Below are positions 10,877 through 22,054 of a stretch of DNA of 64,000 nt, in pieces (position 1 is the stretch's first letter; every line of letters starts with the position of its first letter). A program made the position numbers and the translations under genes. The notes beneath the pieces were generated by a model. It saw nothing but the letters and a program-made list of their open reading frames with translations. It had not been told where the DNA came from and did not search any database. Source of the DNA: an uncultured Acidobacteriota bacterium (GTDB lineage: Bacteria > Acidobacteriota > Thermoanaerobaculia > UBA5066); assembly GCA_963779415.1 (NCBI GenBank), contig CAVZYA010000001.1:516519-580518 (forward strand). Direction: 5' to 3'.

Positions 10877-11137
10877 ATGGCCGAGGGAAAACAGTTAACG
10901 CCTGAAGAATTCCTGGCTACGGTTCTCGTGCCGCAGTATGGCCGGGAAAGCGGGCACATGTGCTGGGATTGCAAGCACTTCAAACCGGTTCTGAAGGGCT
11001 CCAAGTTCCCGCCCACCGACACGATCGGCTGGTGCACGCAGATCCACTGGCCCTTCTACTGGTGCGTGACGGACTTCAACGTCGTCAAGAAGTGCTACGC
11101 CTTCGAGAAGGGCATTTACACCTTCAAGAAGTTCTGA
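10877..11137 (+). CDS. Hypothetical small Cys/Trp-rich protein (86 aa)
   Basis: RBS AAAGGAG 8 nt upstream of the ATG. CxxC plus three further Cys and many Trp. Tight spacing with neighbours. Confidence 0.55.
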   Translation: MAEGKQLTPEEFLATVLVPQYGRESGHMCWDCKHFKPVLKGSKFPPTDTIGWCTQIHWPFYWCVTDFNVVKKCYAFEKGIYTFKKF

Positions 11138-11138
11138 C

Positions 11139-11432
11139 ATGGAGGAGAACGTCCGGAAGGAGCTGGATACGCTCACGGGGATGGTGCTGACCTGGAAGAA
11201 GGACTATCTCGGGTCGGTATCATCCGATGAGGACTGCGAGTACCTCGCTCGGGAATTCCTGGACGAGGTGGAGACCCACGTCTACCCCTACGTGAGGAGG
11301 CTCATGGAATGCAATTTCCTCACGGGACCGGAGGCGACGGAGTTTCTCGACTCCTGCTATCGCCAGGCAGAGGAGCTGAACAAAGCCATCCAGCAGCCGG
11401 ACGCCAAACAGGGTGAAACGATAGGAGGGTAA
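11139..11432 (+). CDS. Hypothetical small acidic helical protein (97 aa) ending in ...ETIGG-stop
   Basis: ATG overlaps the upstream stop (TGACATGG). C-terminal diglycine immediately followed by TAA. Next gene starts 3 nt later. Confidence 0.5.
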   Translation: MEENVRKELDTLTGMVLTWKKDYLGSVSSDEDCEYLAREFLDEVETHVYPYVRRLMECNFLTGPEATEFLDSCYRQAEELNKAIQQPDAKQGETIGG

Positions 11433-11434
11433 AC

Positions 11435-11854
11435 ATGGCTGAGAAATGCCGAGTGGGGGTCTGCGGGTACGACCCCGTTCTGGTGAAGGGATACGTCAAG
11501 ACAGGCGAGCGAGCCCTCTGGTGGCACCTGTCGGACGAGGTGTACGAACAATACCAGGTGAAGCCGGGTGACACCGTCACCGGGAAGATCCTGGCGGTTT
11601 ACGACGGGACCGGCACGAAGACGGCCTCCCCGAACGAGCCCTTCGAGTGGAAGTGCCCGAAGGAGTCGGGCCTGGCGGTCCTCCTGCCGCCTGCGACCAT
11701 CGTCAAGTTCAAGCTCTCCGCTTTCCATTTCCTCGAGCTGCTCGTGGAGAAGGTCGGCGGAAAGGACGTCTATCCCGGCAAGGAGCAGATGAGCTTGAAA
11801 TGGTGGCCCGAAGAGAGGATGAAGCTCGACTACAAGGTGCCTTACATCGAGTAG
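11435..11854 (+). CDS. Hypothetical protein (139 aa)
   Basis: RBS GGAGGG upstream. Coding-like composition. Last gene before the intrinsic terminator. Confidence 0.55.
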   Translation: MAEKCRVGVCGYDPVLVKGYVKTGERALWWHLSDEVYEQYQVKPGDTVTGKILAVYDGTGTKTASPNEPFEWKCPKESGLAVLLPPATIVKFKLSAFHFLELLVEKVGGKDVYPGKEQMSLKWWPEERMKLDYKVPYIE

Positions 11855-11994: not shown

Positions 11995-12048
11995 ATGTAT
12001 CCTCGGCGATGGAACGGTGACATTCGATCGGAAGGGAGAATCGCGTAC

Positions 12049-12291
12049 ATGACAGAACACGACAAGCCGAATGAAGAGGGCTACACGGCTCCGGCGTACG
12101 TCGACCCGGCGATGGGCGACAGCCCCCCCGTCGGAGGCCTGATTGACAACGAGGCCGTCTGCCGGGACTGCATGACCGCCGCCGAGGAAGTCAGCATGCG
12201 GCGCGGGTTTGTCGACCCCGTCTCCGAGCAGCAGGCCAAGGCGAAGGGGACCGTCTGCGCCCGGTGCGGCAAGAAACTCGTCGCCGCGTAG
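12049..12291 (+). CDS. Hypothetical small protein with two CxxC pairs (zinc-ribbon-like), 80 aa
   Basis: ATG at 12049 preceded by AAGGGAG. CRDC...CARCGKK motifs. The upstream in-frame ATG at 11995 lies inside the terminator T-tract. Confidence 0.45.
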   Translation: MTEHDKPNEEGYTAPAYVDPAMGDSPPVGGLIDNEAVCRDCMTAAEEVSMRRGFVDPVSEQQAKAKGTVCARCGKKLVAA

Positions 12292-12334: not shown

Positions 12335-12748
12335 ATGGCAGAGCCGGAAAAGGCCCCACGACGAGAGGTCGTCGAGCAGCTCCTGCCGCTCGTGGTGGAG
12401 TTGATTCCAGGGCAGGCGGCTGAAGGCCTGATCGAAGTGCTCGAGCCGGGCAGCTACGAGGCCCATTCCCTCCGGACGCTTTGCGAGAATCTCCTCAGGA
12501 GAACGAACTGGAGCGTGGAGGAGCAGCAGGTCCTGGAGGACATCAGGAGACAGCTCGACGGGGGCCGGCTCCTCTGCCGGGGCCGACCCGTCGACGGCCG
12601 GGCTCTGGATCTCGCGGTGGTCGAGGAAACCGAAGCAGGCGAGAAGTATCTCTATGTGCCTGTCCACGCCATCAGGCCGCAGGAAGGCGGAGGCGCGGCA
12701 CCCCGGATCGCGCACCAAAGTTCAGCAGACGAGAGCAGGAGCCTATGA
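12335..12748 (+). CDS. Hypothetical protein (137 aa) and candidate ubiquitin-like modifier precursor: helical N-terminal half, then ...KYLYVPVHAIRPQEGGG followed by a 17-aa tail
   Basis: ATG at 12335 (MAEPEK...). Coding-like composition. The C-terminal half resembles a beta-grasp ending in GG(G), like MoaD/ThiS/ubiquitin tails, with a removable extension. Stop overlaps the next ATG (ATGA). Confidence 0.5.
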   Translation: MAEPEKAPRREVVEQLLPLVVELIPGQAAEGLIEVLEPGSYEAHSLRTLCENLLRRTNWSVEEQQVLEDIRRQLDGGRLLCRGRPVDGRALDLAVVEETEAGEKYLYVPVHAIRPQEGGGAAPRIAHQSSADESRSL

Positions 12749-12951
12749 GTTCCAGGTTCGTAGTCACGGAGAGCACCACGGTGGACGATGTTGCCGCGGC
12801 GGGCCGGCCCGACCCCCTCTACTGCAAACTCGGCCTGGGCCAGCAGGCCCGCGTCCTCGCGGACGAGATCGATGCCGCGCTTGGTGGGGATACGAGCTGC
12901 GGGGGCGCCGGACTCGGATATGTTCCGGACATCGTAGAGGTTGAAGAATAG
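12745..12951 (+). CDS. Hypothetical small protein (68 aa) with internal ...CGGAG... motif
   Basis: ATG overlaps the upstream stop; GGAG 8 nt upstream. Could alternatively be a spurious ORF. Confidence 0.35.
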   Translation: MSSRFVVTESTTVDDVAAAGRPDPLYCKLGLGQQARVLADEIDAALGGDTSCGGAGLGYVPDIVEVEE

Positions 12952-13159
12952 CCTGGAGAATCGCGTGGAGATAGAGGCTCCCAAGGACTGGGACCCGAAG
13001 TGCCCAAAGTGCCAGGAAGAGCTTCGACGAATGCTCGAGCTGTCACAGTCGGTCTACGAGGACCTCGACCACGGCGCGGGGTTGTACCGGTTGCCGTTGC
13101 CACCTTGCACGCACCATGCGGCGCAGGGCGAGCACAAAGACGCAGGAGGGGTCGCTTGA
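12941..13159 (+). CDS. Hypothetical small protein (72 aa) with CPKC motif
   Basis: Overlaps the previous ORF by 11 nt. Weak support; composition only. Confidence 0.3.
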   Translation: MKNSLENRVEIEAPKDWDPKCPKCQEELRRMLELSQSVYEDLDHGAGLYRLPLPPCTHHAAQGEHKDAGGVA

Positions 13160-13199: not shown

Positions 13200-14411
13200 A
13201 TGATGGATCTGCTGGAGTCCGACCTGGAGCTCGTCGTCCGGTCAGGATTCATCTACCTGCCGCTCCTCTTTGATCCTTCGGTGGCGACGGAGATCGAGGG
13301 GAACGTGGGCAATCACCTGGTCGCCCGGGACGCCGGCAGGCATTTCGTTCGGACGATGAGCCTGCGATCGCTCGTTTCAAGCTACGAGGCTCTCTGGCCG
13401 AAGTCGTACGAGAAGTTGCGGCGGTCGAAGCTGTGCCGGTTCTCCGGGGACCTTTCGCCGGCCGAAACGGGCGCCAGCGAGCGGCTGAAGGAGATCCTCT
13501 TCTCCGTCATGCCGCACTTCGTCAGGAGGGGGAAGCGGCTCGACAGGAGGCGGCTGACCGAGGAGGACGTGCTGGACCTCATCGAGGAGAGAACCGGACT
13601 TCCCGGCGGATACGCCATGGCTGCAGCCAGCGCTCGGGATCCGGGCTCCATCCGGCAGATCCTCGTGGAACTCGAGGAACGCCGCCCGGCGGCCGAGCCG
13701 CTGCCCGAGGGCCGAATGTCTGCGCGGACCCTCGCGGATTGGCTTCTGCGCGCCCAGGAAGCCCGGATTCTGGAAGAGGAGAGCCAGCGACTGACGGGGT
13801 TTCTCTCCGCGCAGGAGGGCCTCGATACGAGGGCGGCCAGGCGGCTGGCGATTTTGCGGTGCGTCGCGGAGAAGGGGACGTTGGAAATCGACGGATTCGG
13901 CTTTCTGAGGACAGGACCCGGCGACGACTACGTGATCTACAAGCGCACCGGCGAGTTCGCTCTCAAGGACTACTACGGTCGGCTCTATCTGTTTCCGGAT
14001 TGCCGGGTTGCCGTGTCGACGGCCGCTGGCCTCAGGCCCTTCGTCGTGGAGACCTACAAGCATCCGTTTCTCGAGGCCCACGACTCCGGCCAGGAGATCT
14101 GCCTGGGCCGCACCACGGCGCGCCGCTTCTCCGGAGCGGCGGCGATCGTCGAGGCTCTGCAGGAGGGAATCAACGCCCTGCTCCATGGCTACAGCAGCCG
14201 GCGCCGAAACGGGTACCACAGACTGGAGGGACTGTTGAGGTCGGTCCGGCTCCCTGGCCCGGACGATCCCGGCTACCCGGAACCGCCGGACGACAGGCCC
14301 CGCTCCAAGCGGCACATCCTGGACGTCGACTTCGACGACTACCGCATCCCGGCCGATCACCCCGGGATCGTGTCGGGTCGGGTCGAGATCACCAACGACG
14401 TCGTGCCGTGA
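13200..14411 (+). CDS. Protein with a C-terminal UBC/E2-like domain (HPF...GQEICLG) and a ~250 aa N-terminal domain of unknown function
   Basis: ATG-ATG at 13200. C-terminal segment LYLFPDCRVAVSTAAGLRPFVVETYKHPFLEAHDSGQEICLGRT...IVEALQEGINALL mirrors the UBC core: beta-sheet, HPN-like motif, then catalytic Cys in G-x-I-C-L. HPF codons at about 14061-14069, Cys codon about 14099. Confidence 0.6.
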   Translation: MMDLLESDLELVVRSGFIYLPLLFDPSVATEIEGNVGNHLVARDAGRHFVRTMSLRSLVSSYEALWPKSYEKLRRSKLCRFSGDLSPAETGASERLKEILFSVMPHFVRRGKRLDRRRLTEEDVLDLIEERTGLPGGYAMAAASARDPGSIRQILVELEERRPAAEPLPEGRMSARTLADWLLRAQEARILEEESQRLTGFLSAQEGLDTRAARRLAILRCVAEKGTLEIDGFGFLRTGPGDDYVIYKRTGEFALKDYYGRLYLFPDCRVAVSTAAGLRPFVVETYKHPFLEAHDSGQEICLGRTTARRFSGAAAIVEALQEGINALLHGYSSRRRNGYHRLEGLLRSVRLPGPDDPGYPEPPDDRPRSKRHILDVDFDDYRIPADHPGIVSGRVEITNDVVP

Positions 14412-14884
14412 TGACGACGGACGACACCCTCTCGCGGGACGAGCCGCCCCGGGCGACGCCGGATCTGTTGCGGGACATAAGAACCATGCGCGCCGGCAGG
14501 CGGCGGAAGGAGCCCTTTCGGACGAGCCTCTACTCCCGGGTCGGGGGTCTGGTGAGGCGATATGGCCTGGACGAGGCGTTCCTCCGGGCGCTCGACTCCC
14601 CGGGCGGCTTCTCCCGGGACGGCCGTCCGGATGCCGTCCGGCCGAAGGGGAAAGCGCCCTATGCTCCTCCCCTCTTTTTCCTTTCCACGGAGAGAGAGCA
14701 CCGCGTGACGACGGTCATCCTGGAGAAAGTGAAGAGCCCGTTCCTCGCGTACGCCACGTCGCCCGACGAGATTCTCCTCTGCGAACGCCTGTTCCGTGAG
14801 GACCCGTCCCTTTCTCAGGAAACGCTCGCGTGCCATCATTTCGAGACGTTGATGCCGGCCGGAGCGGATTCCGGGCCGGGCTGA
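14411..14884 (+). CDS. Hypothetical protein (157 aa), operon member
   Basis: ATG overlaps the upstream TGA (GTGATGA). Coding-like composition. Confidence 0.5.
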   Translation: MTTDDTLSRDEPPRATPDLLRDIRTMRAGRRRKEPFRTSLYSRVGGLVRRYGLDEAFLRALDSPGGFSRDGRPDAVRPKGKAPYAPPLFFLSTEREHRVTTVILEKVKSPFLAYATSPDEILLCERLFREDPSLSQETLACHHFETLMPAGADSGPG

Positions 14885-14899: not shown

Positions 14900-16000
14900 G
14901 TGGAACGGATTTCGCCGCAACGCCGCCGGGAGATCGGGGAGAGAGTCGGCGCATTCCGCGAGAGCCAGGTCGGCGACGCCGTCAATCAGATTCTCGAGTT
15001 CGACAAGACGCCGGCCGACCTCAAGGCCTACATGGACCGGTTCGTCATCGGCCAGGAGCAGGGGAAGAAGATCATCTCCGTCGGCATCGCCTACCATTAC
15101 CGGAGGCTCGCGGCGGCCCTCAGGCGCGCCGTCGTCGAGAACGGCGAGGAGCTGGGCGCCGCCTTGCACGGCGCGGCCACGCCGAAGGCCAACATCCTGA
15201 TCGTGGGGCCCCCCGGCTGCGGGAAGACCTACACGGGCGAGGTCGCCTCCCGGCTCGTGGGGGTGCCGTTCGCCGTGGAGGACCTGACGAAGTTCAGCGA
15301 AACGGGCTACGTGGGCCAGAACGTGAGCGACATCCTCCTGGACCTGCTGATCGCGGCCGGCGGCAACCCCCAGGTGGCCCAGATGGGCATCGTCTACCTG
15401 GACGAGATCGACAAGATCGCCGCCGAGCCGATCGTCTCGAAGGACGTGTCGGGGCGCGGGGTCCAGAAGGGGCTCCTCAAGCTCGTCGAGGGGGCCGAGA
15501 ACACCATCGACCTGGGCCAAGAACGGATCTCCCTTTCCACCCGACACGTCCTGTTCATCGCAGGAGGCGTGTTCGAGGGGCTGGAAGGAACCGTCGGAAA
15601 GCGGATGGAAAGGGATCGTCTCGAAGGCGAGTGGAAGGACCACCTCCTCACGGACGACTTCGTCGGCTGCGGGATGGAGCGGCAGCTCATGGGGAGGTTC
15701 CCCGTTCGGGCCGTCTACGACCCGCTCAGCGTCGAAGACCTCAAGAACATCCTGCTCGAGAGCGAGGAGAGTCCGTCCCGCGCCTACATCGACGACCTGA
15801 AGGCGTGGAACATCGAACTCCGGTTCACGGACGGCGCTCTCACGGAGGTCGCGAGGCGCGCGCAGCAGGATCGGACGGGCGCCCGGGGACTCATCGGCAT
15901 CCTCCACAAGGTGCTTCTGGAGGACATGTACCGGCTTCCGGGCGTCCACACCGGCGAGCTGGTGGTGGACGAGAAGTACATCCGGGAGCGGCTCGGGTGA
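14900..16000 (+). CDS. ClpX-like AAA+ ATPase (unfoldase) lacking the N-terminal zinc-binding domain and the IGF ClpP-docking loop
   Basis: [22 protein letters not shown], Walker [25 protein letters not shown], Walker [30 protein letters not shown] and sensor-2 TGARGL all align with ClpX/HslU. 366 aa, against ~420 aa for canonical ClpX. Confidence 0.85.
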
Positions 16001-16050
16001 GATTCCGGGGGCTCTCGGAGCTGAAGCGCGCGCCATGCTTCGAGGCTCCC

Positions 16051-16803
16051 GTGGGAACCCTGCCGGAGTGGATCCGGATGACGCGTCACTCCCTCGCGAA
16101 GGCCTTCAAGATCAACGAGCTCGTCCGGTCCGTCCACGGGGACAGCTACGAGTGGTACGGATTCACCGTCGCCGAGCGGAGCGATCCGGAGCTGGTCGTG
16201 GACGTTCTTCTTCCGGCCAACGACGAGAACTTCACGGACCACACCCGCGTCGCACCCGAGGCGATCGACGCGTCGAGAGAGTCCCTCCCCCGGGATCGGG
16301 TGATCAACGGCTGGATCCACTCCCACGGGGCCCTGCCGTACGAAGGGTTCTCCTTCGTGGACGAGAGGAACCAGGAGGCCGTGACCGATTACGTGAACAC
16401 GCTTCTCAGGAAGCCGGTGGCCAAGAAGGAGATCCTGATCAGGGACCTCGCGATCCTCGTCGAGGGCCGCTTCTCGGAGAAGGAGCTGGAGCAGGGAAGC
16501 GTCGCGCTCATCACCGACGCCCCCGTCAAGGAGGCCCGGATCATCGAGACCATATACGGAAGCTTCTGCTTCGCCATCGTCATCGGCGACGACGGCTGGC
16601 ACAGGCAGCAGGTCCATTACCGCAGGCGGGGCATCCTTTCCGGGCAGACGACCGAGGAGAGCCGGGACACCGACATCGTCCTTTCGGGCGACGCGCGGCC
16701 GCTCACCGAGGCGGAGATCCAGATGCTGGCGGACGAGGTCCGCACCCGGATCCGGCCGGGCGTGGCCGTTCCACCCGAGCGGTTCGAGCGGGAGGCGACA
16801 TAA
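16051..16803 (+). CDS. JAB/MPN (JAMM) family metalloprotease, deubiquitinase-like
   Basis: Motif GWIHSHGALPYEGFSFVDE = H-x-H-x8-S-x2-D with upstream Glu residues. GTG at 16051 or ATG at 16078. Lies in the long frame after the ClpX-like gene. Confidence 0.75.
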   Translation: MGTLPEWIRMTRHSLAKAFKINELVRSVHGDSYEWYGFTVAERSDPELVVDVLLPANDENFTDHTRVAPEAIDASRESLPRDRVINGWIHSHGALPYEGFSFVDERNQEAVTDYVNTLLRKPVAKKEILIRDLAILVEGRFSEKELEQGSVALITDAPVKEARIIETIYGSFCFAIVIGDDGWHRQQVHYRRRGILSGQTTEESRDTDIVLSGDARPLTEAEIQMLADEVRTRIRPGVAVPPERFEREAT

Positions 16804-16840: not shown

Positions 16841-18118
16841 ATGGAGACGGGACCGGCTCGCGAGAAGGCGCATGACCCGAGGCTGGACCGCCAGCTCCGG
16901 ATCCCGAACTGGAACCAGCGGGCCCTCGAGGAGGCGCGGCTCGCCGTCTTCGGCGACGACGACCTTCTCGCCTCGCTCTACGTCCTCTCCGCCGCGGCCC
17001 TCGGCGTGAACGACGTCGTCCTGATCGCGCCCGCCTGGAATGAGAAGCTGATCGAAATCGCCCGCCAGCTCAATCCGAGGCTCAGGCTGGCCCTCCTCGA
17101 GGGGCTCCACACCCACCCGGTCCTGGAGGAGCTCTTCAGGCCCTGCACGGCCATCGTGGACCTCACCCGCTACGCTCTGGCCAACAAGCTTCTGCTGGAG
17201 ACGGGCTACCGGTCGGGAATTCCGGTGATCCGTGGGTTCTGCCTCGAGAAAGACGGGTGGGAAGGGCTCTCCGTCTTCACCTACAGGCGCGGCCGGGAGT
17301 GGGAGGAGCTCCGGGAGCTCGTCTCGCCCTCCAATCTTCCCTGCGACCACTTCGACGACGCGATTCTGGCCCTCGTCGCGGCCGGCATCGCCCTGGAAGA
17401 AACCAAGAACGTCATCATGGGACACCGGGTGTCGGAGGAGCTGATCGGCTACAGGCGGCCGAAGGTGGTTCCCCTGGAGCCCGACTCCGGCGTCATCATC
17501 GTCGGCGCCGGCGCCCTGGGTAACTTCGTCGGGCTCGGACTGGCCTGTACGGGGCTCCGGCGAATCACGGTCGTCGATCCCGACGTGGTGGACGTGACTA
17601 ACCTCAACAGGCAGGTGCTCCTGGCCGGCGGCGTAGGCCGAAGCAAGGCCGAGGTCCTCTGCGAGCGCCTGCACTCCCTCTTCGGAATCCGGGCGGAGGC
17701 CCGGGTGGCTTATTTCCGGAAGGACTCCGAGCTCGACGCCTCCGACGCTGTCTTCGATTGCGTGGACAACTTCGAGACCCGGGTGATCCTGAGTGAGAGG
17801 TGCCGGGAAGAGGGAAAGGTGCTCATCAGCGGCGGCACGGGCCCTCAGGCCGGACAGGTCATCGTGTTCGATCCGGCGCGCCCGAGCGAAACGCCCGCGG
17901 AGGTTCTGGGACTCTACGAAATCGTCGAGAGGCGGGAGATCGACGCCTTCCGGAGGGAGACGGCGTCCTGCGCCTACCAGCCCGATCCGTCCGTCGTCAT
18001 GACGAATCAGATTATCGGAGGATTGATGGCCGATTCCTATCGTAGGCTCCTGGCCGGAGAGGAGACCCCGAATATCTTCTACGATTCGAGGAACGACGCC
18101 CGGATCTTCGGGGGGTGA
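16841..18118 (+). CDS. ThiF/MoeB/E1-like activating enzyme with a degenerate N-terminal and a canonical C-terminal adenylation domain
   Basis: N-terminal LDRQLRIPNWNQRALEEARLAVFGDDD... lacks GxGxxG. C-terminal IIVGAGALGNFVGLGLACTGLRRITVVDPDVVDVTNLNRQVL is the classic E1 nucleotide-binding motif. Cys in ...ETASCAYQPD is a candidate thioester site. Confidence 0.85.
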   Translation: METGPAREKAHDPRLDRQLRIPNWNQRALEEARLAVFGDDDLLASLYVLSAAALGVNDVVLIAPAWNEKLIEIARQLNPRLRLALLEGLHTHPVLEELFRPCTAIVDLTRYALANKLLLETGYRSGIPVIRGFCLEKDGWEGLSVFTYRRGREWEELRELVSPSNLPCDHFDDAILALVAAGIALEETKNVIMGHRVSEELIGYRRPKVVPLEPDSGVIIVGAGALGNFVGLGLACTGLRRITVVDPDVVDVTNLNRQVLLAGGVGRSKAEVLCERLHSLFGIRAEARVAYFRKDSELDASDAVFDCVDNFETRVILSERCREEGKVLISGGTGPQAGQVIVFDPARPSETPAEVLGLYEIVERREIDAFRRETASCAYQPDPSVVMTNQIIGGLMADSYRRLLAGEETPNIFYDSRNDARIFGG

Positions 18119-18191: not shown

Positions 18192-19415
18192 ATGAGCAGC
18201 GAGAACGACGTCGCGCAGACTCAGGAGGACCAGCCGATCGGCTGGCAGCGCCTCGGCGACGTCCTGACACCGCCGATTCCCGGCTTCGAGGACCTCCTCT
18301 TCCTTCCGAGCCTCGACAATCAGTCCTCCAACATCTACGTCCTGCCGGGGGACTGCGTAACGATCGTGGACCCGGGGAACGATTACACGGCCTTAATGGA
18401 GCTCTTCCCTGCGAGAGCCAGGCCCGAGGACGTCAGGAAGATCGTCCTGACGCACGGGCATTTCGACCACGCCATGGGGGCGCTCGAGTTCCTCAGGACG
18501 TATCCGGATCGCCCCACGGGCGCGCGCATCGAGCTGATCCTCCACGAAGGGGGTCCCGACCAGTTCAAGCAGACGGCGAGGGAGCAGGGCGCCTCCGTGA
18601 CCGAGGTACGGGGCGGGGAGACTCTCGAGCTGAGCGGCCTTTCCTTCGACGTGATCTACACGCCAGGCCATACCATCGACGGCATCGCCCTCTATCACGC
18701 CCCCTCGAGGACCGTCTTCAGCGGCGACGTCGTGCTGCCGCTCGCGGTAGCCGGACCCGATCCCAAGGCCGGGGGAAGCCTGGACCAGTACCTGTTCGGG
18801 CTGAGGGCGTTGCTCGCGAGGGAGATCGAGAACGTCCTCCCGGGCCACGGCCCCGTCGTCGGCCCGGGCGGGAGGAAGGTCATCGAGCAGACCTACGAGG
18901 CCGTCATGATGAAGCTCCTGGGGGTCGAGAAGCCGATCCCGTGGATCCAGGGTGCCATTCAGCTCGCGGAGCGCGGGCTGCTGGAAGAGGCCGTTTTCTG
19001 CGCCGGGAAAGAGCTGGCCCGCGACCCGGGGCACGCCAAGGCCCTCGAGCTCAAGGCCGTGTGCCTCAACGATCTCGGGCGGTCGTCTGAGGCCCTCGAG
19101 GTCCTGGATCGGCTGCAGGAGCTGCAGGCCGGCGACGATGCGTTCATCCACGTCGGCAGGGGATATGCCCTCATGGGGCTTGGCCAGTTCGAGGAGAGCG
19201 TCAAGTGCTTCGACGCCGCTCTCCGCATCACGCCGGGCCTGAGGGACGCGCTCGTCTACAAGGGGATGGCCCTCCATCTCTCGGGGAACCACGAGGAGGC
19301 CATGGACATCGAGCCCTTCAGGACGGAGTTCATGGGGCGGTTCCGGAGCGAGCTGCTCAAGGCGTCGCGGCCCGCCCCGAAGGATGGCCTCGCCGAAGGC
19401 ACTGGAAAGGCCTGA
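18192..19415 (+). CDS. Metallo-beta-lactamase-fold hydrolase fused to C-terminal TPR repeats
   Basis: LTHGHFDH (HxHxDH), TPGHT and a later His-Gly; C-terminal half has TPR-like A/L/G/Y spacing. 407 aa. Last gene of the operon. Confidence 0.8.
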   Translation: MSSENDVAQTQEDQPIGWQRLGDVLTPPIPGFEDLLFLPSLDNQSSNIYVLPGDCVTIVDPGNDYTALMELFPARARPEDVRKIVLTHGHFDHAMGALEFLRTYPDRPTGARIELILHEGGPDQFKQTAREQGASVTEVRGGETLELSGLSFDVIYTPGHTIDGIALYHAPSRTVFSGDVVLPLAVAGPDPKAGGSLDQYLFGLRALLAREIENVLPGHGPVVGPGGRKVIEQTYEAVMMKLLGVEKPIPWIQGAIQLAERGLLEEAVFCAGKELARDPGHAKALELKAVCLNDLGRSSEALEVLDRLQELQAGDDAFIHVGRGYALMGLGQFEESVKCFDAALRITPGLRDALVYKGMALHLSGNHEEAMDIEPFRTEFMGRFRSELLKASRPAPKDGLAEGTGKA

Positions 19416-19540
19416 AAAAAGACTTCGAGATCCCGGGGCCAAGGGATAGACTCGCTCGCGTTTCACCCCAGATTCCGACCGCGGCCCGCGTCGCCGGCCT
19501 CTCCCGGCGAGCCGGGCAAGAGACAGGAGGAGACGTCGCC

Positions 19541-21214
19541 GTGAGCACGATTCCCGAAAACTATCTTCCCCCGAAGGAGTTCCAACCCGAGCGGATCTAC
19601 AAGCTGAAGGAGTTCGCGAGCTACCCGGATCCGCTGAACAGCACCGAGGAGCTACTCGACAAACAGATCGCCGCGGGCCGGGGCGACAGCCCGGCGGTCC
19701 TCTTTGCGGACAAGGTCCTGACCTACAAGCAGCTTCTGGGGGCGTCCTGCAAGATCGGGAACGCGCTCCGGAAGCTGGGGGTCGAGGAGTCGGACCGGGT
19801 GTTGCTCCGCTCTCCGAACGTTCCGCCCGCCCTCTTCACGAACTTCGGGGTCCTGAGGCTCGGGGCGGTCATCGTCCCGACCTCTCACATGCTCTCCCCC
19901 CCGGAGATCATCCACATCGCCAACAACGCCGAGGCGAAGGTGATCGTGGTGGCGTCCGCGTTCCTCGAAGGGGTCATCAAGGCGCGCCCGAACCTGAAGA
20001 CCGTCAAGCACGTCATCGTCTTCGGCGGCCAGCCCGAGGAGCTGAAGAAGCAGGATCTTCTCTGCTACGAGGAGCTCGTCGCGAACGAGGCGCCGGCCTT
20101 CGCCCCGGTACGCCGTCCGCGCAAAGCCGTCGCCGTTCTTCTTTACACCTCGGGCACGACCGGCCTGCCGAAAGGGACGGTCCACTACCAGGAAGAGGCC
20201 CTGATCGTTCCGGACACCTTCGGCAAGTACGGATGGAACGTCCAGCCGGAAGACATCATCTGCGGACCCGCGCCCATCTCGCTGGCCGGCGGATACTCGA
20301 CCGTGGCGACGATCCCCTTCCGGTTCGGCGCCGCGGCCTCCCTGATTCCCAAATTCACGCCGGACGGGCTCTTCGAGACGGTCCAGAATCACAAGGTGAC
20401 GATCCTGAGCGCCCTCCCCACGGCGTACCGCAAGATGCTCGAGGTTCCCGGCGCGGAGAAGAAATACAACCTCTCCACCCTCCGCGTCCTGACCGGTGGC
20501 GGTGAATCGCTGACCGCAAAAACCTACAACGACTGGAAGGGGCGCTTCGGCCAGGAGATCTACGAGGGGCTCGGCACGTCGGAGATGATGTACGTCTTCG
20601 TCTCGAGCGTGGTGACGCGGAAAGTCAAGCCCGGCGCGATCGGCACCGCCGTCCCCGGTTACGAGATCCAGGTCATCACCGAGGAGGGAAAGGTCGCCAA
20701 GCCCGGAGAGCTGGGCCGGCTTTACGCCCGCGGGCCGACGGGGACGCTCTACTGGCGCCCGTACGAGGACGGCGGCAGCATGCTGGAGAAGCAGAAAGCC
20801 GTCATCCGCGAGGGGTGGGTGCTCGTCGGGGACTTCTGCACGATAGACGACGACGGGTACCTCAGCTTCGTGTCGCGCCAGGAGGACCTGATCAAGAGCT
20901 CCGGCTACCGGATCGGACCCGAGGAGGTCGAGGACGCTCTTCTCAAGCACCCGGCCGTGGCGGACGCCGGCGTGATCGGGGTTCCGGACCCCGTCCGGGG
21001 CCACAACGTCAAGGCCTTCGTCCTCCTGAGGCCCGGACAGACGCCGAGCGACGAGCTGAAGCAGCAGATCATCGACAGTTGCCGAGATCACATCGCGATC
21101 TACAAGCTTCCCCGCATCATCGAATTCACGAGCGAACTCCCGCGCACCCTCCAGGGGAAGCTCCTCCGGCGGGTTCTGCGGGACAAGGACAAGGGGGCGG
21201 CTCCCGCGAGCTAG
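19541..21214 (+). CDS. AMP-forming acyl-CoA synthetase/ligase (benzoate/aryl-CoA ligase-like)
   Basis: GTG at 19541 with AGGAGG 11 nt upstream. LLYTSGTTGLPKG (AMP-binding box I), YEGLGTSE, and C-terminal ...GKLLRRVL with Lys. Confidence 0.85.
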   Translation: MSTIPENYLPPKEFQPERIYKLKEFASYPDPLNSTEELLDKQIAAGRGDSPAVLFADKVLTYKQLLGASCKIGNALRKLGVEESDRVLLRSPNVPPALFTNFGVLRLGAVIVPTSHMLSPPEIIHIANNAEAKVIVVASAFLEGVIKARPNLKTVKHVIVFGGQPEELKKQDLLCYEELVANEAPAFAPVRRPRKAVAVLLYTSGTTGLPKGTVHYQEEALIVPDTFGKYGWNVQPEDIICGPAPISLAGGYSTVATIPFRFGAAASLIPKFTPDGLFETVQNHKVTILSALPTAYRKMLEVPGAEKKYNLSTLRVLTGGGESLTAKTYNDWKGRFGQEIYEGLGTSEMMYVFVSSVVTRKVKPGAIGTAVPGYEIQVITEEGKVAKPGELGRLYARGPTGTLYWRPYEDGGSMLEKQKAVIREGWVLVGDFCTIDDDGYLSFVSRQEDLIKSSGYRIGPEEVEDALLKHPAVADAGVIGVPDPVRGHNVKAFVLLRPGQTPSDELKQQIIDSCRDHIAIYKLPRIIEFTSELPRTLQGKLLRRVLRDKDKGAAPAS

Positions 21215-21241: not shown

Positions 21242-22054
21242 ATGGCGGTCGTCACGGTGTCGCGCGGAGCCGGGAGCAAGGGGCAGGCATTCGCCCGGCA
21301 GCTTGCCGACCGCCTTGGATACGAGCTCGTCAGCCGGGAGGACGTCGTTCAGGCGGCGGCTAAATCCGGCGTCCCCGCCGAGAGGTTGCAAAAAGCGCTT
21401 CTCGAGGCGCCCGGCTTCTGGGACAGGCTCACCCTCGACCGGAAGCGATATCTGGCGTTCGTCCAGGCGGCGCTTTCGGAGCGGGCCCGCAAGGACCGGA
21501 TCGTCTACGAGGGGAACGCGGGACACCTGCTGCTCCGCGGCGTCTCGCACGTCGTCTGCATTCGTCTCCTGGCGCCGCTCTCGCACCGCGTCCAGACGGC
21601 CGTGGAAACTCTCGGGATGAGTCACGACGAAGCCGTTCGTTACATCGAGAGCTCGGATCACGAACGGGAGAACTGGACGCGCTTTCTCTACGGCGTGGAC
21701 TGGCTCGATGCCGCCCTCTACGACGTCACCCTCAATCTGAGGACGCTCCTGATCGACGGCGCCGTCGAGGCGGCGCTGGCGGTCGTCCAGCGCCCGGAGT
21801 TCGCGCCGACCGGAGAGAGCCGGAGCGCGATGGAGAACCTCGTTCTGGAAAGCCGCGTGCAGGCGGCCCTCGCGTCCAATGGCGAGACCGCGGCGGCGGC
21901 GGTCCAGGTACATGCCGGGGACGGAGTCGTGTCGCTTCGGGGCCGGGTCCGCCCGGCCCGGATGGTCGACGCCGTCCTCGGCGTCGTCGGCCGCGTGGAC
22001 GGTGTGAAGGAGATCGACTCGCGGGACCTCGGAGCGCCCGACTACACCGTTTAG
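21242..22054 (+). CDS. Cytidylate-kinase-like P-loop protein with C-terminal BON domain
   Basis: N-terminal VVTVSRGAGSKGQAFARQLADRLGY P-loop. C-terminal ...VVSLRGRVRPARMVDAVLGVVGRVDGVKEI resembles BON. Confidence 0.55.
   Translation: MAVVTVSRGAGSKGQAFARQLADRLGYELVSREDVVQAAAKSGVPAERLQKALLEAPGFWDRLTLDRKRYLAFVQAALSERARKDRIVYEGNAGHLLLRGVSHVVCIRLLAPLSHRVQTAVETLGMSHDEAVRYIESSDHERENWTRFLYGVDWLDAALYDVTLNLRTLLIDGAVEAALAVVQRPEFAPTGESRSAMENLVLESRVQAALASNGETAAAAVQVHAGDGVVSLRGRVRPARMVDAVLGVVGRVDGVKEIDSRDLGAPDYTV

Follow-up and report, generated by a model that had tools for sequence, protein, structure and literature searches.

In canonical ClpX, the AAA+ ring carries peripheral parts with distinct tasks: the zinc-binding domain (ZBD) serves adaptor and substrate docking, the RKH loops recognize ssrA-type tags, and the IGF loops dock ClpP. 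The window analyzed here (the whole stretch of DNA, 64 kb long) encodes a ClpX-like ATPase for which a reading made from the sequence alone had claimed the loss of the first and the last of these parts, as well as a place inside an operon with E1, E2 and JAB genes. What could a ClpX-type ring do in such a neighborhood, and would it need ClpP for it? The eukaryotic proteasome and Cdc48 are built on one basic scheme, in which a ubiquitin-like (Ubl) tag works together with an AAA+ unfoldase and a JAMM deconjugase. The only prokaryotic pairings of a Ubl tag, an unfoldase and a deconjugase that we know of are Pup-Mpa and SAMP-PAN/Cdc48. The features of the locus are listed in Table 1.

Table 1. Genes of the locus and landmarks within the ClpX-like ATPase gene (positions are those of the window; motif positions were taken from the family alignment).
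Feature	Position (nt)	Strand	Size or residues	Remarks
Ubl-like tag precursor	12335..12748	+	137 aa	
Small accessory ORF (MSSRFVV...VEVEE)	12745..12951	+	68 aa	start overlaps tag stop
Small accessory ORF with CPKC motif	12941..13159	+	72 aa	
Protein X	13200..14411	+	403 aa	N-terminal domain (function not assigned) and C-terminal E2 (UBC)-like domain
Protein Y	14411..14884	+	157 aa	start overlaps X stop (TGATG)
ClpX-like AAA+ ATPase (subject of this report)	14900..16000	+	366 aa	
Walker A, GPPGCGKT	15206-15229	+	residues 103-110	
Pore-1 loop, GYVG	15305-15316	+	residues 136-139	
Walker B, IVYLDE	15389-15406	+	residues 164-169	
RKH-loop deletion site	about 15515-15525	+		
IGF-loop deletion site	about 15620-15630	+		
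Arginine finger, GRFPV	15692-15706	+	residues 265-269	
Sensor-2, GARGL	15878-15892	+	residues 327-331	
JAMM/JAB metalloprotease	15997..16803	+	268 aa	GTG start overlaps ATPase stop (GTGA)
E1-like adenylating enzyme	16841..18118	+	425 aa	tandem-domain
MBL-fold hydrolase fused to TPR repeats	18192..19415	+	407 aa	accessory

The motor core is that of ClpX

The ORF opens with a GTG codon at 14900, with GGGAGGAG just ahead of it, and closes with a stop codon at 15998-16000; a protein identical to its product is present in the NCBI/ENA public records. The sequence-only reading had listed a complete set of ClpX AAA+ motifs, and all six of the motifs that it quoted were found in the translation. Walker A and B, the arginine finger, sensor-2 and an aromatic pore-1 loop, which define the motor core of the ClpX/HslU type, are present, and the motor-core motifs together with GYVG are invariant across the 40 family members aligned (mean column identity of the ATPase alignment, 76%). 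Pfam AAA_2 matched the protein with 65.7 bits. In the alignment to the full-length E. coli protein (E 2e-56), residues 37-361 correspond to ClpX residues 66-403, and the identity to canonical ClpX was 38-41% across about 330 residues. Judged by its sequence, the gene product is a motor of the ClpX lineage in which the ATPase site is complete and the GYVG translocation loop is kept. In public annotation, members of the family are entered as ClpX or as a generic AAA ATPase. A promoter and terminator scan over 10-20 kb of the window was uninformative.

The peripheral elements of ClpX are missing throughout the family

Canonical ClpX, represented by the E. coli protein, shares with the new ATPase the large and small AAA+ domains, Walker A/B, GYVG, the arginine finger and sensor-2. 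In contrast to it, the ATPase has no ZBD, RKH loop or IGF loop and is not encoded beside clpP. The ORF begins directly at the AAA+ domain, at a point corresponding to E. coli residue ~30-66, and has no C4 zinc ribbon, as had been proposed. Fusion to a ZBD is impossible, because the start codon is preceded, at a distance of 15 nt, by an in-frame TGA (14882-14884), and CxxC...CxxC was absent from all 20 family members examined. Nor was a conserved ZBD found in trans in an upstream ORF. The candidate considered for this role, an ORF with CxxC...CxxC at 11995..12291, recurred in one related locus only (L006) and was therefore rejected as a conserved component. At the equivalent position of another locus (L002), there is an unrelated small ORF.

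For the IGF region, the earlier claim had been a shortening by about 30 residues with loss of the tripeptide. The loss holds, while the size needs correction, since the alignment shows a deletion of 14 residues (E. coli TGSGIGFGATVKAK). We found no [ILMV]GF tripeptide anywhere in the protein, and none in any of the 20 members; it occurs in every other ClpX-type protein fetched for comparison. A second deletion, of 6-7 residues relative to E. coli ClpX, removes the RKH loop, and RKH is absent from all members. The pore-2 loop is 3 residues shorter than in E. coli ClpX, the C-terminus is shorter than that of ClpX, and an extra 9-13 residues precede Walker A. ZBD, IGF loop and RKH loop are missing from 20/20 family members examined, all of which keep GYVG and the ATPase motifs, so that on the evidence of these alignments the loss of the ZBD, the RKH loops and the IGF loops is a family-wide trait.

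The sister lineage HslU (ClpY) belongs to the same AAA+ group and likewise has no ZBD; its characteristic features, the I-domain and the HslV-activating C-terminal tail, are both absent from the ATPase. The alignment with E. coli ClpX and HslU, which had been proposed as a check, confirmed that the IGF loop and the I-domain are both missing: the match to HslU falls into three separate stretches, and nothing in the protein corresponds to the I-domain. The NCBIfam scores were 258.1 bits with NF003745 (ClpX; cut-off 359), 235.3 bits with TIGR00382 (ClpX; cut-off 370.75) and 152.4 bits with TIGR00390 (hslU; cut-off 362.45). These scores place the protein nearer to ClpX (258 bits) than to HslU (152 bits), and the PAN models gave only about 22-23 bits. 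No HbYX-type motif for docking to a proteasome was seen at the C-termini of the family (...RERLG as in YIRERLG, ...EKLG, ...RLKK). In a rough distance tree, the family stood apart both from canonical ClpX and from a second ClpX-like group of 500-600 aa that bears the IGF tripeptide. A woesearchaeotal protein (L021; 43% identity, 522 aa, no IGF) was set aside as an outlier with an unrelated gene context.

The ATPase belongs to a six-gene cassette

The neighboring E1, E2-like and JAB genes are real, and the ATPase does lie in an operon with them as had been described. Six genes make up the cassette: the tag, the E2-like protein X, Y, the ClpX-like ATPase, the JAB protease and E1. Four of the six products (tag, X, Y and JAB) match no curated family above threshold.

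The body of the tag ends in an invariant KPQEGG (G118-G119, nt 12686-12691), which is followed by an 18-aa non-conserved tail. Throughout the tag family, ...PQEGG is invariant and 0-75 hypervariable residues follow, some relatives ending exactly at GG; the C-terminal Gly-Gly of a Ubl modifier, exposed directly or after processing, is thus present. The tag had no Pfam match, its AF2 model reached a pLDDT of 41.6, and hhalign against a hand-typed alignment of ThiS, MoaD, SAMP, Urm1 and ubiquitin gave no signal (probability 0.2%). The GG end and the gene neighbors, and not the fold, are what suggests a ubiquitin-like tag.

Two small accessory ORFs follow. A gene caller predicted the 68-aa gene at the same position on a near-identical contig; the ORF is restricted to a close clade, and in 195-aa relatives (e.g. 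P0261) its sequence follows the GG of the tag within one fused protein. The 72-aa CPKC ORF had tblastn matches at the same position in two loci (L004 and L005) and is fused onto the tag tail in P0286 and P0333; Pfam zinc-ribbon hints to it were at chance level only.

Protein X consists of a 230-residue N-terminal domain and a C-terminal domain with the features of an E2, namely a UBC fold and a Cys after an HPN-like motif. The motif YKHPFL...Q.IC is invariant and provides the candidate catalytic Cys301 (nt 14100-14102). No Pfam E2 model matched any member of the X family, sequence-profile searches of the PDB with the X and JAB alignments returned nothing, and Foldseek of the X model against the PDB gave no significant match. 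Protein Y had no Pfam, NCBIfam or PADLOC match. Among the 137 representatives of its family (50% identity), most are shorter than 300 aa and none has a length that suggests a Y-ATPase fusion. Likewise, the protein lengths of 120 ATPase relatives suggest no fusion of the ATPase to Y or JAB.

In the JAB protein, all 18 members share the catalytic residues E52, H108, H110, S119 and D122 in canonical order, with the spacing HxHx8Sx2D, one residue longer than in the classic motif. Pfam Prok-JAB matched 9 of the 18 members weakly (best E 3.5e-4) and there was no Pfam match to the window protein. In an hhalign comparison with the MPN domain of yeast Rpn11 (sequence entered by hand), the probability was 67% (E 5e-5), and the five catalytic residues aligned with Rpn11 E48, H109, H111, S119 and D122. 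No function was assigned to the C-terminal ~130 aa. E1 has a degenerate N-terminal Rossmann domain, in which GDDD replaces the glycine loop, and an active ThiF domain at residues 216-411 (Pfam ThiF, 122.7 bits; cut-off 28.1). It shows the conserved motifs GAGALG, NLNRQ and DN.E.R and an invariant Cys in aSC.y.PdPSV, and thereby combines the adenylation domain and the conserved Cys of the ThiF/MoeB/Uba superfamily. The NCBIfam ThiF/MoeB models all scored below cut-off, and PADLOC gave generic E1-E2 matches to the adenylation domain alone, the other five cassette proteins remaining unmatched. The MBL-TPR gene downstream (Pfam Lactamase_B, 85.6 bits, and TPR families) occurs in 6/18 loci.

A survey of homologs, which the sequence-only reading had recommended, showed the linkage to E1 and JAB to be conserved over 18 loci, which include three DPANN archaeal MAGs (GC 29-32%); the bacterial hosts come from several phyla and include Desulfobacterota-type bacteria and Binatia. 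The ATPase is linked to JAB in all of these loci (18/18), to X in 16/18, to the tag and to E1 in 15/18 each, and to Y in 13/18. Y is kept in 13 bacterial loci, and in the DPANN loci its position is taken by a longer protein (396-451 aa) whose N-terminal part appears Y-like by eye, with no Y match in tblastn. TrmB-family regulators adjoin the cassette in the two of the three DPANN loci that were checked (L014 and L017). No further conserved family lies beside the cassette over the 18 loci, and no peptidase in particular.

In 16/18 loci the JAB start overlaps the ATPase stop; in the other two, it lies 2 nt past that stop or upstream of it. The two genes are apparently coupled in translation. A complete genome (CP070692.1; L001/L015) carries the tag, the ATPase and JAB alone, with no E2 or full E1 nearby, so that the ATPase-JAB pair may do without conjugation enzymes encoded close by.

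The absence of clpP from the window was borne out by tblastn over the 64 kb, which found neither clpP nor a second clpX-like gene. No clpP was detected within ±8-10 kb in 20 related loci, and in three control loci clpP lay directly upstream of canonical clpX. To our knowledge, archaea normally have no ClpP. To judge by this linkage, the ClpX-like ATPase is a fixed member of a six-gene Ubl-like tagging cassette that is apparently undescribed: the full-text literature searched, whose coverage excludes most subscription journals, contained no paper in which ClpX or a ClpX-like ATPase is connected to bacterial Ubl/E1/E2/JAB operons.

Comparison with known systems

ClpX-type rings that act as unfoldases or remodelers without proteolysis are generally known: yeast mitochondrial Mcx1 reportedly has no ClpP partner, and ClpX is said to remodel the MuA transpososome. 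As far as we know, both keep ClpX-type accessory elements and neither has a link to a conjugation system. The 26S base-lid (Rpt1-6 and Rpn11), SAMP/JAMM1-PAN/Cdc48 and Cdc48/p97 follow the same logic as the cassette, with a GG tag, E1, E2, an AAA+ translocase and a JAMM deconjugase. Unlike the classical AAA motors of these systems (Rpt/PAN/Cdc48), the motor of the cassette is of the ClpX lineage, and in contrast to 26S and PAN it has no HbYX and no linked 20S, and all six genes stand in one operon. The Pup-Mpa/ARC-Dop system of Actinobacteria is likewise prokaryotic and joins a small-protein tag to a dedicated AAA+ unfoldase and a deconjugase. Its ligases are glutamine-synthetase-like, whereas the cassette has E1 and E2, and Mpa is a classical AAA that docks to the proteasome, whereas the cassette ATPase is of the ClpX lineage. 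Pfam and NCBIfam model searches revealed no sequence relation between the cassette proteins and the Pup system.

For the bacterial systems Bil (I, II), Bub (6E), type II CBASS Cap2/Cap3 and 6A-MBL, no AAA+ unfoldase is described in the literature searched (PMC11601596). The additional ATPase and Y of the cassette lie outside the gene sets listed there for Bil and Bub. Moreover, in contrast to these four systems, the cassette has no DUF6527 protease, no CD-NTase and no E2-E1 or JAB-E1 fusion, its genes being separate, and its E2-like protein carries the long N-terminal domain. PADLOC and Pfam recognized none of the window's tag, X, Y and JAB proteins.

Proposed role of the ATPase

We consider this gene to be probably the dedicated AAA+ unfoldase of the six-gene Ubl-like conjugation cassette. 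Its most likely role would be that of a ClpP-independent unfoldase working with JAB on tagged proteins, where both the independence from ClpP and the tag-based substrate recognition are predictions deduced from anatomy. In such a pathway, JAB would trim the variable tail of the tag and expose GG, E1 would adenylate the tag and pass it to Cys301 of the E2-like X, and the tag would be joined to target proteins. The ATPase hexamer may then engage the tagged proteins, perhaps via the conserved 36-residue N-terminal helix or via Y, and would thread them through its pore, while ring-bound JAB would detach the tag, much like Rpn11 in the proteasome. A ring of this kind would offer no dock for a peptidase chamber, so that its substrates would be unfolded, extracted or disassembled in the manner of the Cdc48/p97 segregase, or handed to an unlinked protease.

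A broader proposal, which we put forward only tentatively, is that a ClpX-lineage ring and an apparently coupled JAMM protease might form a 'tag, unfold, de-tag' device with no proteolytic chamber, which would unfold proteins that the E1 and E2 of the operon have marked with the GG-ended tag and clip the tag off in the process, independently assembled and horizontally shared between bacteria and DPANN archaea. If true, this would be a new prokaryotic Ubl proteostasis or segregase system, with proteasome-lid/Cdc48-like logic and a different motor lineage. Should the cassette work as outlined, a ClpX-derived motor would have been independently recruited to a Ubl pathway, and the six genes would offer a compact in vitro system for the coupling of tagging, unfolding and de-tagging. 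The family is also a natural minimal ClpX, which helps to separate the function of the motor core from that of the peripheral recognition and docking elements.

Alternative explanations

The biological role could be anti-phage defense or another conflict, similar to Bil, type II CBASS and 6A-MBL, with the ATPase unfolding tagged phage proteins or regulating an effector such as the MBL-TPR protein; we regard this as unlikely, although an unfoldase mechanism would fit such a role as well. Those bacterial E1/E2/JAB operons that PMC11601596 discusses and that have been studied by experiment are defense systems. Besides, the MBL-fold gene that accompanies a third of the loci (6/18) recalls 6A-MBL, E1 weakly matches the NCBIfam 6A-MBL cap2_3 model and the PADLOC E1-E2 models, and the patchy spread over bacteria and DPANN archaea suggests horizontal transfer. 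However, PADLOC sees nothing more than the generic adenylation domain (0/5 of the other proteins), and the neighbors seen are metabolic or regulatory and not defense genes. The ATPase is also highly conserved for a conflict system (76% mean column identity), as these usually diversify rapidly.

It is rather improbable that the ATPase delivers substrates to ClpP, HslV, a proteasome or some other protease whose gene lies elsewhere, through a docking mode other than IGF, in a degradation pathway resembling that of Pup, Mpa and the proteasome. The motor and the pore loop are intact, and the known pairs of Ubl and AAA+ proteins (26S, Pup-Mpa, SAMP-PAN) typically lead to proteolysis. The docking surfaces argue against it: every member has lost the IGF loop, with no substitute [ILMV]GF tripeptide anywhere, the pore-2 loop, also a ClpP contact, is shortened, and the truncated C-terminus offers neither an HslU-like tail nor HbYX. 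Furthermore, peptidase families are linked in 0/18 loci, and the archaeal hosts would normally have no ClpP.

That the ATPase acts on parts of its own pathway, by unfolding tag precursors or fusions for JAB or by recycling E1/E2-tag complexes, seems quite improbable. JAMM proteases usually process short C-terminal tails with no unfoldase, and conjugates are presumably formed, given how strictly most loci keep E2 and E1. Such a task would nevertheless agree with the varying length of the tag tails (0-75 residues), with the whole small proteins that some genomes fuse after GG, with the persistence of the tag-ATPase-JAB trio alone in CP070692.1 and with the apparent translational coupling of the ATPase and JAB genes.

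We find it highly improbable that the six genes form a sulfur-carrier or cofactor pathway (ThiS/MoaD-E1-JAB type, CysO-Mec+ like) in which the ATPase is a chaperone. The best named matches of E1 are ThiF and MoeB, all below cut-off, and a GG-ended carrier with JAB and E1 makes up the classic sulfur-transfer sets (PMC1779556), but the presence of an E2-like protein whose Cys is invariant speaks against it, as do the absence of any linked rhodanese, cysteine synthase or cofactor gene and the lack of a ThiS/MoaD signal in the tag.

Finally, that the gene is the ordinary clpX of its host, mis-called or degenerate and with a coincidental neighborhood, can be virtually dismissed: JGI does label members 'ATP-dependent Clp protease ATP-binding subunit ClpX', but, as far as sequence comparison can tell, this reading is already contradicted by scores below both ClpX equivalog cut-offs, by identical deletions in 20/20 members under strong purifying conservation, by the separation from canonical ClpX in the rough distance tree, by the in-frame stop upstream and by synteny kept across phyla and domains.

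A reduced ClpX-type motor

The ClpX-like ATPase is a new, reduced variant inside the ClpX/HslU group. Its reading frame opens with a GTG lying 8 bases 3' of GGGAGGAG, and an identical product of 366 residues is known from an NCBI/ENA contig. Pfam assigned the protein to AAA_2/AAA, and its top matches in NCBIfam were the two ClpX equivalog models, yet both scored below cut-off (258 versus 359 and 235 versus 370.75 bits); the HslU model was weaker (152 bits). In a PDB search E. coli ClpX structures came first (E 2e-56), with residues 37-361 corresponding to ClpX 66-403. All six ClpX AAA+ motifs quoted in an earlier, sequence-only reading were found.

Differences from ClpX were read from the PDB alignment and from an alignment with the canonical ClpX of the fetched genomes. 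As had been proposed, the zinc-binding domain (ZBD) is absent from these alignments, and an in-frame TGA lies 15 nt 5' of the start. The IGF loop is missing as well, through a deletion of 14 residues; the earlier figure of about 30 was an overstatement, although the rest of that description proved correct. The RKH loop at the pore entrance is lost through a 6-7-residue deletion, the pore-2 loop is 3 residues shorter, and an insertion of 9-13 residues precedes Walker A. The C-terminus, also shorter, has no HslU-type tail and no HbYX motif. The protein departs from canonical ClpX in five defining features and keeps the motor core: its ClpX-type motor is intact, and none of the docking or recognition elements specific to ClpX is left. 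Its identification as the product of an ordinary clpX gene is poorly supported. The 64-kb window contains neither clpP, as the same reading had stated, nor another clpX-like gene. The stop codon of protein Y (TGA 14882-14884) is in frame with the ATPase start 15 nt downstream, and read-through would yield a Y-ATPase fusion; this shared frame is probably due to chance.

Distribution of the ATPase family

We searched a collection of 5.8 billion proteins and took the best 120 matches, nearly all of which had 363-372 residues and 64-94% identity; they came from Desulfobacca, Syntrophobacteraceae, other Deltaproteobacteria and metagenomes. A family member was present in 18 fetched GTDB loci, including MAGs labelled Binatia, Acidithiobacillales, Desulfarculales and Desulfobacterales. 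Three DPANN archaeal MAGs (Woesearchaeota, Aenigmatarchaeota, Nanoarchaeota) hold a member at 52-54% identity. The archaeal cassette loci have a GC content of 29-32%, and TrmB-type regulators flank the two that were checked (L014 and L017); they look like resident archaeal DNA and not bacterial contamination.

The N-terminal CxxC...CxxC, the [ILMV]GF tripeptide and RKH were absent from all 20 family members examined, and GYVG was retained in every one; each of the other fetched ClpX-type proteins compared with them had an IGF-type tripeptide. Over 40 bacterial members the mean column identity was 76%, with all ATPase motifs invariant. A rough neighbour-joining tree (BLOSUM62 distances, no bootstrap) placed the family in a group of its own, with the archaeal members at its base, apart from canonical ClpX and also from a group of IGF-bearing, ZBD-less ClpX-like proteins of 500-600 residues.

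That longer group, found in many Acidobacteriota, Verrucomicrobiota, Desulfurivibrionaceae and other genomes (loci L022-L083, e.g. L029, L036, L053), has the IGF-type loop and no detectable ZBD or RKH. A Woesearchaeota MAG encodes a 522-aa protein (L021:7410-8978) with 43% identity to the family, likewise without IGF and with an N-terminal extension of 200 aa. Around it lie genes for 103-aa and 404-aa proteins, an Mrr-type nuclease and an SNF transporter, with no E1, E2 or JAB gene nearby.

A conserved six-gene cassette around the ATPase

Cassette content was determined over the 18 loci by tblastn with the window proteins and by all-against-all ORF clustering, both of which returned the same conserved set.

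Genes of the cassette and its surroundings in the window, with occurrence among the 18 loci
Feature	Position	Strand	Loci	Remarks
Three closely packed ORFs	10877..11854	+		86 aa (Cys/Trp-rich), 97 aa (...ETIGG-stop), 139 aa
CxxC...CxxC protein	11995..12291	+		98 aa, 5' of tag
Tag	12335..12748		15/18	~120 aa; conserved up to invariant KPQEGG
Small ORF	12745..12951	+		68 aa, between tag and X
Small ORF	12941..13159	+		72 aa, CPKC, between tag and X
Protein X	13200..14411		16/18	403 aa; invariant YKHPFL-x5-Q-x-I-C, like the E2 HPN...Cys signature
Protein Y			13/18	small
ClpX-like ATPase	14900..16000	+	18/18	GTG start
JAB-like protein	from GTG 15997		18/18	268 residues; true start, not ATG 16078
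E1	16841..18118	+	15/18	degenerate Rossmann domain, then active ThiF domain (Pfam 122.7 bits), invariant Cys
MBL-TPR hydrolase			6/18	accessory
ORF upstream of the next gene	19205..21214			669 aa
Cytidylate-kinase-like domain fused to BON domain	21242..22054	+		Pfam 115.6 and 32.4 bits

Neither method yielded further conserved families in these loci, nor any linked peptidase family. The suspected linkage to E1 and JAB genes was borne out, and the ATPase and JAB pair is the sole part of the cassette found in all 18. Missing components mostly reflect contig ends, the exception being the complete genome CP070692.1, in which the tag stands together with the ATPase and JAB pair alone. Genomic linkage of the ATPase is obligate to the JAMM protease and near-obligate to the GG-ended tag, the E2-like protein and the E1. 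The stop codon of the ATPase and the start codon of JAB overlap in 16 loci, the window among them; 15 of these show [A/G/T]TGA, which in the window is GTGA. In the remaining two loci, JAB starts 2 nt past the ATPase stop or upstream of it. To judge from gene layout, this is what would be expected of two subunits made together.

In CP070692.1, a deltaproteobacterial MAG chromosome (L001/L015, 2.11 Mb region), no X, Y or full E1 lies within ±8 kb; a short remnant resembling the E1 C-terminus lies upstream of the three genes, and a TPR-only protein resembling the MBL-TPR C-terminus is close by.

Partner proteins

Beyond KPQEGG the tag continues for 0-75 hypervariable residues, and some members stop exactly at GG, a pattern that, on sequence grounds, is characteristic of a conjugatable modifier whose C-terminus would have to be processed. 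With hhalign no relation of the tag to ThiS, MoaD or ubiquitin was detected; Pfam gave no match, and its AF2 model had a pLDDT of only 41.6. A sulfur-carrier function of the cassette is poorly supported. The 68-aa and 72-aa ORFs are confined to the clade closest to the window. In the relatives P0261, P0286 and P0333 the tag continues in frame, right after GG, into small-ORF sequence, resembling ubiquitin-fusion proteins.

Foldseek, Pfam and PDB sequence profiles returned nothing for protein X, whose N-terminal domain spans 230 residues; there is moderate support for an E2 fold in its C-terminal domain, as a divergent E2. The family of protein Y comprises 137 representatives, with no recognisable relatives outside it. 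In the DPANN loci tblastn gave no Y match, and its position is taken by a protein of 396-451 residues whose N-terminal part is Y-like by eye.

E52, H108, H110, S119 and D122 of the JAB-like protein are invariant, and half of its relatives weakly match Pfam Prok-JAB. When its profile was compared with the MPN domain of yeast Rpn11, all five catalytic residues aligned (probability 67%, E 5e-5). The E1 is a single-chain tandem, in whose N-terminal Rossmann domain GDDD replaces the glycine loop; its layout is that of a pseudo-heterodimer, as in eukaryotic E1s and in BilD, for which a single-chain tandem has been described (PMC11601596).

The cassette has the same four roles as Bil-type operons (tag, E2, JAB, tandem E1) and adds the unfoldase and Y. 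It was not recognised by the Pfam, NCBIfam and PADLOC models of such operons. A full-text literature search, with most subscription journals outside its scope, found no ClpX or ClpX-like ATPase linked with bacterial Ubl/E1/E2/JAB operons. The 2006 census of prokaryotic ubiquitin-like neighbourhoods mentions ClpS alone (PMC1779556), and the overview of Bil and Bub operons in the Bub paper has no ATPase among the genes (PMC11601596).

Proposed mechanism and alternatives

We favour, with some reserve, the view that the ATPase is a dedicated ClpP-independent unfoldase of the cassette, working with the JAB protease. More tentatively, and with rather more doubt than belief as a whole, the cassette would tag, unfold and detag its targets. 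The JAB protease would lay bare GG on the tag, E1 and X would attach the tag to targets, and the ATPase ring would bind the tagged proteins, with Y or the conserved 36-residue N-terminal helix in place of the ZBD as candidate receptors. The ring would then pull the tagged protein through its pore while JAB took the tag off, like Rpn11 on the 26S proteasome. In studied ClpX proteins, docking to ClpP needs the IGF loops; since the ATPase also has no HslU-type tail or HbYX motif, the product is likely an unfolded or extracted protein, as with Cdc48/p97, and not peptides.

It is possible that the ATPase works on the pathway's own precursors, in view of the extended tails and the small proteins fused behind the tag GG. 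There is also a hint of a defence role, which would be consistent with the unfoldase mechanism: some loci have an MBL partner, and the distribution is patchy and crosses domains. Against it, PADLOC picks up the generic E1 domain only, the observed neighbours are metabolic or regulatory, and the cassette proteins are highly conserved. A partner protease encoded elsewhere in the genome is disfavoured, as the anatomy of the ATPase speaks against it.

Genes flanking the cassette

The 98-aa CxxC...CxxC protein, found in L006 between JAB and E1 (2236-2481), was considered as a ZBD supplied in trans and rejected: its Cys spacing is unlike that of the ClpX ZBD, and most of the family's loci do without it. 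The three ORFs farther upstream had no match in Pfam, NCBIfam or PADLOC. The GG end of the 97-aa protein may mark it as a second tag or be mere coincidence, and the 139-aa protein recurs beside the MBL-TPR gene in two other loci (L005, L009).
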